Assembly (NCBI GenBank): GCA_000182565.2 | Contig: KQ257468.1 | Reading direction: 5' to 3' (one strand) | DNA from: Spizellomyces punctatus DAOM BR117 | Lineage: Eukaryota | DNA length: 64,000 bases | The notes under the pieces: generated by a model | Seen by the model: the letters and a program-made list of their open reading frames with translations, nothing else | Told to the model about the DNA's origin: nothing | Databases searched by the model: none | Position numbers and translations under genes: made by a program | Part shown: positions 9,473 to 15,400 of the stretch, in pieces | How the letters are laid out: each line of letters begins with the position of its first letter | How positions within the stretch are numbered: the first letter of the stretch is position 1

Positions 9473-10270
9473 GATTACCGAGCGACCAAAAGGTTCAACA
9501 GATAGCGATTTTATGCAACAAATGGAATATCACTAAAAGATGAACGATAAACCATGTGGGGGGAAATGGAGGTTTCGGAGGTCTTTTTATGGTTTTCAAG
9601 TGCTTGTGACATAAAGTTTAAGATCGGCATGTGACTGATATTCTTCTTTAACCCTTGCCTTGATCCCCAACGCCCACGATGATATTCTTTTTGTCTCCAA
9701 CCGTGAGGCAATTTGCAGGAAATCAACCGTTGGAAAAACGCCCGTTGCTAAAGGCTGTCTACGTCCATTCGCTCAATTCATTCAATTCATCATCCATTGC
9801 CATGTGTGTGTGTCCATCTGCTCCGCTTCCGCTTTAAAAGCGTTATATTTCTGTCTTTGGTTGTTGCACTGATTGTTGCAAGTCATAATAAAAATATCAC
9901 ACTTGCCAAGAGTGTTCATGTGACATATTTCTCTCTCTCGGACTTCCGTTCGGAGAATGAATGTCCGACCATTAGTGACGTGTTTCTTTTGCATTGCCAT
10001 TCCCCCCCTTTCAACAATGGGATCTACTGAGCGGATTTCTCCTTTTTTGTGTTGTCTTTCAAGCGGGATGATTTGCCACTGTACGCTAGACCAAGTGGCA
10101 GGTTTACTCTGCTGGCTGGCACACTTTTGACACGAGAAGGCCATGAGTCTCTTCAGTCTTCAGATGCTGGCTACTCTGATTTGTATTGTTATGCCAAAAA
10201 GATATCCGATATAGATCTTGCAAGGACGCTAGCTCAGCGCCAGAAAAAAAGCAGCGGTCACAATCGTGAT

Positions 10271-10351
10271 TGCCAAGGCCGAGAATCGAACTCGGGTCGA
10301 CGCGGTTCTGTGTTTCCACAACGCGATGTACTACCACTATACTACCTTGGC
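10271..10351 (-). tRNA. tRNA-His(GTG) with 10-nt intron
   Basis: The reverse complement reads GCCAAGG TA GTATAGTGGTAGTAC A TCGCG TT GTG G [AAACACAGAA] C CGCGT CGAC CCGAG TTCGATT CTCGG CCTTGGC A. The 7-bp acceptor stem, D-loop TGG, TTCGA T-loop and intron at 37/38 are all present. Confidence 0.93.
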
Positions 10352-10429
10352 AGATGTTCTTTCAACGAGCAACTCGGTATGTCAAGATTGTCCAAGAGTT
10401 CCCTTCAAGCCTTACTAAATCGGTAAGAT

Positions 10430-11170
10430 GTAAACTGCGTAGAATATCCCTATATGTAAAACACTATATCCGTACAAGTAACCCATAATTTCCCAAGTAA
10501 ACCTCAACCTGCACCCAATCGCCTTCCTTGAATCAGTGCTGGTCGTAACTGGTGTTTCGGTTGATTGTCTCGTTGCTTGTAAAGCCTTGCCTGTCAGAGA
10601 TTCCTTGTGCAAGCTGTAAATGTTTAGACCATCGTTCCAATTGTCATATCCATAAAGCTAGCAACAGTTCTCTGGTAAGATGATCTTTCCAAGGCAGTCT
10701 CGCCCATGTTGGAGTAGATTCCTCCATTGGCATTATGGCTTGCTTTAGAATATTTACGGTTACATTGGGGGTTTACATCTTTGGGTCAGAAGCTGATCAC
10801 ACGTATTGATGATCAGATTTACCAAGTTGGGAACGCCGACTTTTGACAGCTGCAACGCAGAGGAAAGCCCCGGAATTCCTTGGCGCAATAATGCGGGGAA
10901 ATGACTTCTTATCTGCTCAGCAAAAGCGTCTGATGGAAAACACTGGCTAACGAGGAAAGATAAAAGGGCTGAATTGCCAAAGTCTTCTCGCTATCCACAT
11001 ACCTGCGTCTTCTATATCTTTTCATTCGGTCGTCAACTTTCCATGACAATCATCTCGTTCCAAATGAGATTGCAACTCTGCTCGTAGCTTGTTGTTCACC
11101 GCAGACCAGAACAGAAATAGCTTGGCTGAATCCAGTTTTAGTCGTTCAAAGTTTGGTAAGTTGAGCATCT
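10430..11170 (-). pseudogene. Possible decayed gene fragment(s)
   Basis: Protein-like stretches on the minus strand (e.g. LNLPNFERLKLDSAKLFLFWSAVNNKLRAEL) and one convincing intron-like GTATGT...pyrimidine-TAG segment (~11002-10947). In-frame stops are present and the frame is ambiguous. Confidence 0.3.
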
Positions 11171-11176
11171 TGCCGC

Positions 11177-12040
11177 TATCAGGTCCATGGCCGGAAGATT
11201 TTTGTTCTTTGGTCGATCCATGCCATAAAGGAACGCTTTGTGACTTTCTCTGAGTCCTTATCGAAATACTCGTCTTTAAGAACCAACTACCTCGCTCCGT
11301 TCTTAACCACGAATACTTTGACAAGGACTCCGAACGAGTGATCGATCGATCATTCCTGGCTTGGGGTCGAAAGGAAAGACAAGAACCCGCGGCTATGGAT
11401 TTACTACGAGAGTTCCTGCTGGTGGTCGTTTAGAACGTTCTGTTTCATCTTAGGATCTAACCCTCCTTTGCGTTTTCCGTCAACCATTAGGTCGTAATCC
11501 CATCGGTTAAGTAGGAGAGGTTAACCGTTCAGCCAACGACGGCTACATCAAACAGACCGGACACCGTATTCCGTTCCTGTTAGCTGTTCGTTGACAAAGT
11601 CGATCCAAAACCGTTGACAAAATTATGCTTGGTAGGTAAAGGTAACCATAGCTTCCGGTACCTACTCGTCCCAGTACGTTTACTGACAGTTTTCTTTTCG
11701 CTTGTCTTTTCTCTTGTTTGGCTCTTGCCCCTGAGTGTCCACGAAGGGAGCACCACTTATGGCCACTTATTTAATCGGTCCGCCTGAGCCACGACCACCA
11801 AATAACTCGACATAAGTAGGGCTCCCTTCATGTAAATTCAAGGGCAAGAGTCAAGGACGAGAGAAAGACGAACGAGACAGTAACCTGTCAATAAACGGCG
11901 ACGACATCAAACAGTGCAAACGACTTGCAGTGTACGGGTGGGACGACAACAACCATCAAGGAGTTTAATCCACGGTAAACAAATAACTCGACAAAAGTGG
12001 TGCTCTCTCCGTCATGCAAATACGACAGTCGACGTTTTGG
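11177..12040. repeat. Patchwork of imperfect inverted and direct repeats made of homologous coding-like fragments
   Basis: Arms 11177-11283 / 11299-11406 and ~11677-11772 / ~11800-11897, plus a third related copy at ~11980-12012. Confidence 0.8.
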
Positions 12041-12486
12041 GCACACCTACACGGTGGTATGAAGGGGTCCCAGCTTACAACTCCTATGGACTTATTCACC
12101 GAACAAGCTGAGCAGTGGTTTGATCTCAATTATACTTCCATATAATGTAAGTAATAAGAGACTGTATCTTCTGTATTCTTCGGGTCTCTTCTGTCAAGTG
12201 CGTTGCACGCATCGGTTCACACATGTGTAGCCAGCATTTGGTCGATACGGGCTGTGCTAATTCTGCCCAGCAATGTGTGTAATCAGCTTCTTCTTAAACA
12301 CTTGGCATATTGGACCAAATATCCGGACTGACTGGCCGTAACAAGTTTGTCCGCTGACTAAAAACAATATTGTACATTAAAGGGAAGGAACAAGCAACAT
12401 AGAACAATTCCCTTTCCCCTCTCGTTCCAATTATTAGTGCCTCGTACGTACAAGTTTATACTGCCCAATGAAGCCCCAACACCGTA

Positions 12487-15400
12487 TCACTGTTGCTTTT
12501 TCACTGCCGGGGGGCTAGCCGCACCACTGGCGGTACCCGTATTCCCACCAACGTTAGGGCCGTGCTGGTATGCGCCATGGTAACCATGAACAGGCATCAC
12601 GCCACCCGGTATGACATTCGCTGCTGGTGTGTCGCCATTCCCTCGTCGTTTTCCAACCCCATGGCCAATAGCAGAGTCCCTAGCGGCGGCGGCAGCAGCA
12701 GCAGCCGCCGCAGCCTTCTCCTTCTCTTCGCCTAGTTGTCGCATCCACATTATATAATAGGTCCCTTCTCCTTTGTCTTCCAAGGCTCCGTTAATAGCTC
12801 CCGCAGCGGCTTTCGCCGCCTGTCGCCTTACAGCTTCTGCTCCGCGCTCCAGTAGGTCGGTATGGGTACCCCGTTCAACGATCTGTCCGTCTTTTAAGAC
12901 CAGAATCAGATCTGCATCCACAATGGTGCTGAGTCGATGTGCAATGACCAGAGTTGTTCGATTTGTTGAAAGAGTGCGCAATGAATCCTGAATGAGTCTT
13001 TCTGTAGTGTTGTCCAGTGCTGACGTTGCCTCATCCAGTAAAATAATCGAAGGATTCTTCAAAATGGTTCGCGCGATTGCAATACGCTGCTTTTCCCCAC
13101 CACTGAGCCGCAAACCACGCTCACCAACCTTTGTCTCGTACCCTGAAAGGCAAAGGAACCAACAGACCATATTAGTACCTTTTTCCTGTCGTGATATATT
13201 AAGCTTGGATTTACCATCAGGAAACGACATAATCCGGTCATGAATCTGCGCCGCCTTTGCCGCCGCTACAACTTCCTCATCGGTAGCATTGATGTTTCCG
13301 TATCGTATATTGTATCGAACCGTGTCGTTGAAGAGCACCGTATCCTAAATCAGATCTCAATAAGGGGGAGGTCATGTACATAACTGTTGCTTGGGTTCGG
13401 TACCTGAGGGACAACTCCTATGTGACTTCGCAGGGACGCCTGTTTTACGTTACGAATATCTTGCCCGTCGACCTTAATGGATCCACTTTGCAGGTCATAA
13501 AATCGGAAGAGAAGCTGTGTGCCCAAATATCAACCGTCTGTTGCGTTGAAGTAATGAAAGGCGTGCTGAACCTACCCGGAAAATGGTACTCTTCCCACCC
13601 CCTGAAGGTCCCACAAGCGCGACAGTCTTTCCAGGTGGTGCCTCGAAAGACACGCTTTTTAGTGCCGGCTGTCGTGGATCATACGCAAAAGCAACGTCCT
13701 CTATTAAATTTAAATGGTTTAGAAAAAATTTAGAAAGAGCCCTAGCAGAACGCCCACAGCAAAATACATACCGAATACGATTTTCCCTCCTTGGCGGACT
13801 GCCAAGTCCCTGGCGTTTGGTGCATCTTTAATAGATTTACCCTCTTCAAATAAATCCAACATCTTCTCCATATCAATAAAGTTCTGTTGAATGACGCGGT
13901 AGTATGTACCAAACCTGCAACGCATGGTGGATTATTCCCCGTCCCTACATGCACTCTGTCAAACATCCACGTACCAGTTCAAAGGTTGGTATAGTTGCAG
14001 CAAGTAGGTCAAAAAGGCCACAAAGTCACCAACAGTCAATTGCCCATCCGCAACCCGCTTTCCGCAGAGTAATAGTCCCGTCAACAAGCCAAGAGTAATA
14101 ACCAAATTCTGCGCAGTGTTGAGGACATTCAGACTCGCGCTGCTTTTCCAGTCGGCCGCTTGAAAACGACGGATTGCCTCATCATACGCATTGACTTCCC
14201 AAGCCTCGTTGTTGTAGTACTTGACAGTTTCAAAGTTTAGCAGCGAATCGACAGCTTTGGCTCGGGAAGCACTATCAAGGTCATTCATCTCCCGACGGAA
14301 CTTGGTTCGCCATTCGGTAATCCATATAGTGCAGGCGATATACAGGACCATCGTCACAAAAACGATCATGGCGATTGCCCAGTCAAACGTGATCAGAAAG
14401 ACTATTACAGCAAGTCCAATGTCGACAAATACAGGTAGAATGTTAAATGCGAGGTAAGACAAGAGAGAACCGATAGATGACGTTCCGCGGTCCATGACTC
14501 GCAGTACCTCTCCTGTCTTGCGGTTTATATGGAATTGAAGGGACAGCGAATGAAGGTGCTCCAGCATTCGCACGGACACTTCCCGAGTAGTGTATTGTCC
14601 AACAGGAATCCAGAGGAAGTACTGTAGGGAGGAGAGTAAACCCACGCCACCTTGCAAAAACCGGAAGGCGGTATACAGAAGAATGGCACCCCAGCAAAAG
14701 TACGGACGCCGCTTGTTTGGATCAGTTTCCCCATTCGGCGTAAGGTCGTCAACGACTCGTTTATATTGCAGAGGCACCAGCACGTTAACGACTCGGCCCA
14801 GTGCGAGCAGAACGAAACAAAAAATCACCAGGAATTGCAAGTGCAAGGGTTTGGGCCAAAGGAAAGGCATTAACTTGCCAACCTTCCTCCAGGTGTCTTG
14901 CCAGGTTGAAGTACTCGCAGGTGTGTTTGTTGCCGGTACTGTCTGGACAGATTCGACATCGCTAGCGCGTTGATTAGGAGACATTCTGCCGACCAGGAGG
15001 GTGATAATAAGACCCAATAGCAACGCGAAGCGCATGACGAAAATGATGAAATATGTTATGTCTAGAGTTGCGTCAAGCATGGTCACTTCTATTGTGGAAA
15101 TACACCAATTAGTCGACCGTACACATCTTCAGCATGTTACTTCGTCCATACCATCTAGCGGATGAGTCATAGCGACAATCCACTGGTAAAGCTGGACAGT
15201 CTCCACGATAAAGGCCAGTATCCAAAATTGTTTGACAGGCATCGGCACACGATCTCTCGGCATTTCATGCCACTCGTTTCTGTCCAGCGTCGCTGCAAAG
15301 AACACAAATGTTGACGCTATCAGCCAAGCAAACGAAGCCAGGACATCGGCGACAGTGCGCGCGGACAAATCTTGAATGATGGTGGTGGGCACTTCCGGAT

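Follow-up and report, generated by a model that had tools for sequence, protein, structure and literature searches.

The inverted repeat at positions 11177-11406 most likely consists of the Gag fossils of two long-separated members of a Ty3/gypsy-type retrotransposon family, which were joined by non-homologous breakage and rejoining or by deletion. We assign a probability of about 60% to this explanation. Profile matches identify both arms as the best-conserved Gag block (profile positions 103-141) of a Ty3/gypsy-type family of LTR retrotransposons. An inverted repeat with mainly synonymous differences between its arms is the signature of two mobile-element gene copies, each of which was selected while active, and gives no indication of an unusual host process. 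The locus is best regarded as ordinary mobile-element wreckage with one single oddity, namely that both copies are cut at the same codon. The term “window” is used for the whole 64-kb stretch of DNA that was analysed.

Read outwards from the centre, the minus arm (11177..11283, minus strand) and the plus arm (11299..11415, plus strand) each open with a 22-residue peptide, encoded by 11283→11218 and 11299→11364, respectively. The spacer between them (11284..11298) comprises 15 nt and is like neither arm. The two peptides share 16 of 22 residues, and in 11 of these 16 the codons differ at the third base only. The arm coordinates, the peptides, the 15-nt gap and both of these counts had been given in the original prediction and were all present in the sequence. 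The same was true for the AMDL motif in both arms with its slip of 1 nt: the minus-arm copy is shifted by one base into another frame. The minus arm keeps its reading frame over the first 22 codons (11283-11218) and changes it before the AMDL motif, while the plus arm runs through 39 codons without stop or frameshift. Beyond LLREF the plus arm loses its similarity to the family, and a stop codon is reached at 11431-11433. The first 8 bases are identical in both arms, and the overall DNA identity amounts to ~70% over the 66-nt core and 66% over 222 aligned columns. A third copy of the arm segment was not found within the 64-kb window. As a single strand, 11177-11406 gave a predicted fold of -84.9 kcal/mol (z -6.6) and could form a long hairpin.

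The codon statistics on the arms rest on these 22 codons, plus 5 further codons around AMDL, which showed the same third-position tendency as the core. Over the 66 aligned bases 20 nucleotide differences were found, distributed 4/2/14 over codon positions 1/2/3. When 20 differences were placed at random 200,000 times, a fraction of 0.000225 of the placements had at least 14 differences in any one phase. Nei-Gojobori counting yielded 12.5 synonymous differences at 13.2 sites versus 7.5 non-synonymous differences at 52.8 sites (Fisher p = 2.9e-7); the synonymous sites were saturated, while 14% of the non-synonymous sites differed. With this result the dN/dS-type codon test proposed in the original prediction formally demonstrated the enrichment at third positions. 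Outward frame 0 was the only one of the six frames with codon-phased conservation; its mirror frame had 13 of 21 identical residues. Cytosine deamination or RIP-like mutation was discarded as source of the phase bias, since 11 of the 20 differences were transversions.

The same 22 codons were compared between the two arms and three intact elements (L001-L003) from unrelated contigs. The arm pair differed at 14 of 22 third positions and at 6 of 44 first and second positions, and the remaining nine comparisons within this set of five sequences gave 10-17 third-position and 6-13 first/second-position differences. Synonymous sites were saturated in every pair but one. As the saturation between the arms equals that between intact family members, the arms were joined only after they had diverged as working transposon genes. 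This agrees with the earlier proposal of homologous arms which diverged under protein selection elsewhere and were joined later. If one arm had drifted neutrally while the other one was constrained, third-position differences would be capped at about 25%, versus 64% seen (P = 1.3e-4). The codon pattern implies that both arms functioned as Gag genes during almost the entire time since their split and belonged to two distinct old lineages at the time of joining. Active transposon lineages are each under purifying selection, and mostly synonymous divergence is expected between any two of them. Because the encoded protein is a Ty3/gypsy-type Gag, the selection “elsewhere” would simply be the normal selection on active transposon lineages. 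The appearance as an inverted repeat has the same background, since the block is the best-conserved part of Gag and its ~70% DNA identity was kept by protein selection.

A local fold-back (snap-back) of one single Gag relic with subsequent divergence in place, optionally combined with gene conversion of one arm, would produce the observed geometry. Fold-back inverted duplications form at repaired chromosome breaks, and the Gag arms resemble them in the short loop, the start of both arms from the same base and the shortness of one arm; the textbook arrangement is present, with a short second arm (117 nt) that starts at the same point as the longer first copy. Moreover, a second inverted repeat at 11677-11897 shows that the locus makes such duplications. 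Nevertheless, we regard this origin as very improbable, in agreement with the earlier claim that the repeat is not a plain local fold-back. Unlike the arms of fold-back duplications, the Gag arms cannot be in-place copies of each other, as their differences are split 4/2/14 where an even spread is expected. Neutral divergence is rejected by the phase bias (P = 2.2e-4), and 0 of 20,000 simulated neutral copies with 20 random changes kept an open frame and at least 16 identical residues when six frames were considered. Saturation of the synonymous sites at only 14% changed non-synonymous sites speaks against it as well. Conversion of one arm by a ~70% identical donor to within 8 nt of its inner end would, from general recombination knowledge, be very inefficient.

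The second, unrelated inverted repeat (11677..11897), located 400 nt to the right, provided an internal control. It is ~75% complementary, contains stops in all frames and lacks codon periodicity. Its 15 differences in 66 nt are split 6/4/5 over the codon positions, which fits the fold-back class, unlike the Gag arms. By its sequence, it behaves as a neutrally drifting local duplication. Neither a Gag-family match nor an Rfam match was obtained for it. With a predicted fold of -105.1 kcal/mol (z -11) over ~220 nt inside a plus-strand polyadenylated transcript, it could represent a hairpin or small-RNA precursor, or a MITE-like insert. The RNA depth drops to 0.5 in the bin 11616-11716, between bins at 5.5 and 4.5. 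Protease-like matches in this repeat (E 0.027-0.43) were dismissed after a profile of the region had given no confirmation. Pieces of the repeat unit recur at 11515-11555, 11789-11837, 11874-11914 and 11970-12021, in direct and inverted order and with 73-81% identity. The stretch to the right of the Gag arms has a history of small local duplications. Beyond ~110 nt the similarity of the two sides of the junction is restricted to a 37-nt inverted match (10788-10824 versus 12255-12291, 78%), 460 nt to the left and 960 nt to the right of the centre (E 1.7e-4 for one side versus the other), which may have arisen by chance or may represent another vestige of homologous arms.

Assignment of the arms to Gag was obtained by profile searches. 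An exhaustive HMMER search with a two-arm profile against 1.84 billion representative proteins identified 10 proteins at E<=0.001 (best 2.5e-10), all aligned over the same block. A second profile built from these first ten matches yielded 73 longer relatives among 7,999 scored candidates, and the ten proteins and these relatives form one family. In full relatives, Gag lies upstream of reverse transcriptase (RT), RNase H and integrase, which is the Ty3/gypsy order. In P0064 (1805 aa), RT was located at residues 917-1089, RNase H at 1155-1284, the integrase zinc domain at 1411-1464 and the integrase core at 1484-1575. P0003 and P0006 carry a CCHC-type knuckle, C-x2-C-x4-H(-x4-C), after the Gag block; the Gag similarity in the window does not reach the knuckle but ends at profile position 204, which fits a fragment. 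Among metagenome contigs, L001-L003 contain an intact gag, and L002 also gag-pol, colinear with residues 1-1774 of P0064. A 71-sequence Gag profile matched only three pieces in the 64-kb window. These are 11283-11194 and 11162-10989 on the minus strand and 11299-11415 on the plus strand, with i-Evalues of 3e-11 for the minus arm (positions 103-132, read leftwards from 11283), 2.3e-10 for the plus arm (positions 103-141) and 6e-07 for the remaining piece.

The Pfam family Retrotrans_gag (PF03732) reached 19.9 bits in the relative P0001 (residues 15-81), below the cut-off of 24.1, and many relatives carry DUF4100 rather than Retrotrans_gag; no paper on DUF4100 was found in the literature collection searched. 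For the two arms and the 64-aa downstream frame, Pfam returned 0 families at E up to 10. A word-indexed protein search listed 2 candidates for the plus arm alone and 11 for both arms, none of them scored. In viral contigs, a target recommended with the original prediction, 221 pattern matches were obtained, none of which was confirmed. The two source lineages of the arms, for which no close relative (> about 70% identity) was present in the protein collections, are ones that we infer.

Only 12 of the 73 longer relatives are named, 6 from moss, 2 from liverwort and 4 from fern; three of the first ten matches are named, all from the same fern that appears among the longer relatives. The organism names on the relatives are all those of non-seed land plants. 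The neighbours in the window look less plant-like: the transporter is most similar to animal ABCB6, and the coding pieces of the genes are separated by very short gaps. The host range of the retrotransposon family may be wider than the names of the relatives suggest. Tcn1-like chromodomain elements are reported from mosses and lycophytes (PMC3350952).

On the minus strand, the detectable Gag pseudogene as a whole covers 10983..11283 (profile positions 103-204). Its coding sequence changes between three frames through at least two frameshifts, and a TGA replaces a W that is conserved in the relatives. About 240 nt downstream and in the same orientation, 10674..10745 (minus strand) is probably a scrap of the integrase region of the same element. 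It matched residues 1633-1656 of P0064, just after the integrase core, with 12 of 24 identical residues in a single match (E 1.9e-5 in a 3-kb search, 4.5e-4 in the whole window). If this scrap is real, its distance of ~240 nt from the Gag pseudogene implies a large internal deletion in the minus element. Start codons are absent from both arms. Both are pseudogene fragments, neither of them able to make protein now, and not annotated neighbouring paralogous genes, an alternative raised along with the original prediction. Long direct repeats representing LTRs were not found around either copy within 10000-12600, which marks the locus as a relic rather than an element. Weak tblastn matches to the Gag N-terminus at 12240-12043 (E 0.09-0.24) and 10430-10377 (E 0.25-0.49) were rejected: the former scored -3.6 with the 71-sequence profile and the latter gave no match with it. 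An inversion model built on these pieces was abandoned, since they had no support from the profile and the reciprocal junction was absent from the 64 kb.

The transposon debris lies directly upstream of the 5' end of a tRNA-Pro (UGG) gene at 10270..10352 on the minus strand (ARAGORN; Rfam tRNA 55.8 bits). In an Rfam search of 9500-12600 the tRNA alone passed, and two other matches remained far below their gathering scores. The debris is flanked by a P450-like gene and by a gene for an ABCB6/HMT1-type half transporter (12346-15086, minus strand; best solved relative human ABCB6, 321 bits). The short gaps between the coding pieces of this transporter gene suggest that the DNA is eukaryotic, although a Protein Atlas search with the transporter returned bacterial clusters only. 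The locus otherwise is a transposon-free, gene-rich stretch, and fragments of the family were detected nowhere else in the 64-kb window.

In both copies the Gag sequence begins with one and the same codon (profile position 103), and the two point outwards on either side of 15 unrelated bases, which bears out the earlier claim of a joining at the same homologous position. The additional proposal that this joining was guided by homology found no support, since ~70% DNA identity offers little homology to guide and ordinary homologous pairing would leave the copies parallel rather than head to head. In the preferred scenario, two family members would have evolved apart as working elements until their synonymous sites were saturated. 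Both would then have landed at the same spot upstream of the tRNA gene in opposite orientations, and non-homologous breakage and rejoining, or a deletion, between the two elements would have created the head-to-head junction. As the rest of the 64-kb window is free of family fragments, two insertions at one spot need a hotspot. In yeast, Ty elements target the region upstream of tRNA genes and accumulate there in either orientation. This specific course, in which both elements inserted at one hotspot and a non-homologous deletion or rearrangement came later, is put forward tentatively, at slightly below even odds. The coincidence of two independent breakpoints on one codon is a priori unlikely and counts against the leading explanation. 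The shared codon would then be partly luck, and such pairs are noticed only when the breakpoints fall close together. The spacer was rejected as a remnant of the Gag codons preceding the block in the intact relatives: compared with the corresponding codons of L001-L003, only 2 to 6 of its 15 bases matched in either orientation. If more such junctions are present genome-wide, they would suggest that a specific mechanism joins copies of retroelements in inverted order.

The common start codon also counts in favour of an origin of the pair in a single event. This could have been an inverted template switch between co-packaged family RNAs, or the repair of a break that copied or captured cDNA of two elements, with a local sequence feature responsible for the common start point of both pieces. 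For a relic isolated in 64 gene-rich kb, this is more economical than two insertions and a matched deletion. By eye, a short interrupted palindrome, GTTCTTAA..AC, self-complementary at 4 of 6 base pairs, can be recognised at the beginning of each arm. From it, synthesis could have switched to the opposite strand of a homologous copy, and the several local inverted and direct duplications to the right indicate that template switching may have occurred here. However, the palindrome is weak (an estimated ~4% chance per site) and was picked after the fact, and the 15-nt spacer matches nothing, unlike the product of a clean switch at a palindrome. Co-packaging of such distant lineages is an assumption in addition. 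Overall, a single-event origin is unlikely. Its specific form, in which one aberrant replication or repair event copied two long-diverged retrotransposon genomes and switched strands at the palindrome opening the conserved Gag block, appears more doubtful still. If true, a single-event chimera would provide a natural example of diverged elements of one family that came together in the same particle or repair event, and would show that they can be joined there in inverted order.

The junction between the arms is real. In the independent DNA run X18, raw 38-nt reads gave a summed depth of ~22 in the bin 11212-11312, and no joints were listed. One contig of run X1 spans 10000-12346 with zero differences, and it may stem from the assembly's own source data. 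Within this contig, 10316-10351 is the sole part common to other contigs of the run, as expected of a multi-copy tRNA gene.

Transcripts were analysed with RNA run X17, of which ~6% was read and which behaves as a sense-strand, 3'-biased library. A minus-strand transcript runs outward over the Gag pseudogene (10500..11211, ends approximate). Its first mates reached a depth of 1-10 in the bins 10505-11211 and of 0.01 in the bin 11212-11312. Contigs of X7 at 10675-11005 and 11003-11210 are identical to the window; their depth was 4-5 compared to 35-47 on the transporter, and the data look like RNA, although the record guesses DNA. On the other side, a plus-strand polyadenylated transcript runs outward over 11414..12175 with an uncertain 5' end and includes the second inverted repeat. 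First mates covered it at a depth of 2-22, with 0.48 in the bin 11313-11413, and a poly(A) run behind 12175 was found in loose read ends (9 reads). The transporter gene, with its poly(A) site at 12346, converges on this non-coding transcript. According to the ORF list, a long reading frame is absent from both transcripts. RNA covering both arms was not found in X17 in either read direction, within the ~6% read of this 3'-biased library. Two divergent transcripts, of which at least the plus-strand one is polyadenylated, therefore flank the centre. The arms lie, probably incidentally, in or beside the start region of these two non-coding transcripts. As a small addition to the annotation, the locus can be recorded as a transposon graveyard located upstream of a tRNA gene, with a divergent non-coding transcript on each side.

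Outward transcription of each side, sense to its arm, with polyadenylation of the plus transcript and with the conserved 22-codon blocks between the apparent transcript ends, would also be compatible with an old head-to-head pair of domesticated Gag-derived genes, selected in place and recently decayed, or with a variant in which the palindrome acts as a symmetric two-way promoter. We consider this hardly credible. The arms are only 15 nt apart and neither contains a start codon, the minus copy has frameshifts and a stop, the family similarity of the plus arm ends after 39 codons, and neither transcript has a long reading frame. Furthermore, the codon-phased pattern is unlike the trace of selection on a promoter, and the 3'-biased RNA library leaves the transcript starts unmapped.

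Compared with known systems, the locus shares most features with degenerate Ty3/gypsy (Metaviridae) relics, namely the conserved Gag block of a family with full members in Ty3/gypsy order, the frameshifts, the stop and the internal deletion. The mostly synonymous divergence of the copies is like that between active Ty3/gypsy lineages. It is unlike the usual relics in that two deeply diverged members, 15 nt apart, are joined head to head at one common codon, and in that LTRs (10000-12600) and other debris of the family within 64 kb are missing. Maize Mu killer and Ac killer 1 are reported to be inverted transposon duplications that trigger silencing (PMC3440606, PMC13635294). They resemble the Gag arms in being inverted duplications of a partial transposon coding region beside host genes, but their arms are near-identical and give one read-through hairpin RNA, whereas the arms found here are ~70% alike. 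The long near-perfect double strand characteristic for the Mu killer type is lacking (70% core identity, 66% over 222 columns), and, also unlike this type, X17 contained no RNA over both arms: minus reads stop at ~11211 and plus reads begin after ~11313. In the inverted-duplication model proposed for the origin of microRNA genes in plants, an inverted gene fragment decays to an imperfect hairpin (PMC3237417). A gene fragment in inverted orientation and the geometry of an imperfect hairpin are present here as well. However, that model starts with identical and neutrally drifting arms, whereas the Gag arms were already far apart at joining and differ in codon phase.

Two minor observations were made. 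Compared with the 71-position Rfam model, the tRNA-Pro (UGG) gene has ~10 extra nt and may therefore contain an intron. In the predicted proteins P0001, P0002 and P0004 the Gag block occurs twice in direct order, and in L003 the end of one pol is followed by the next gag 2.5 kb on; tandem arrays of the Gag-family element seem to be common in other genomes.
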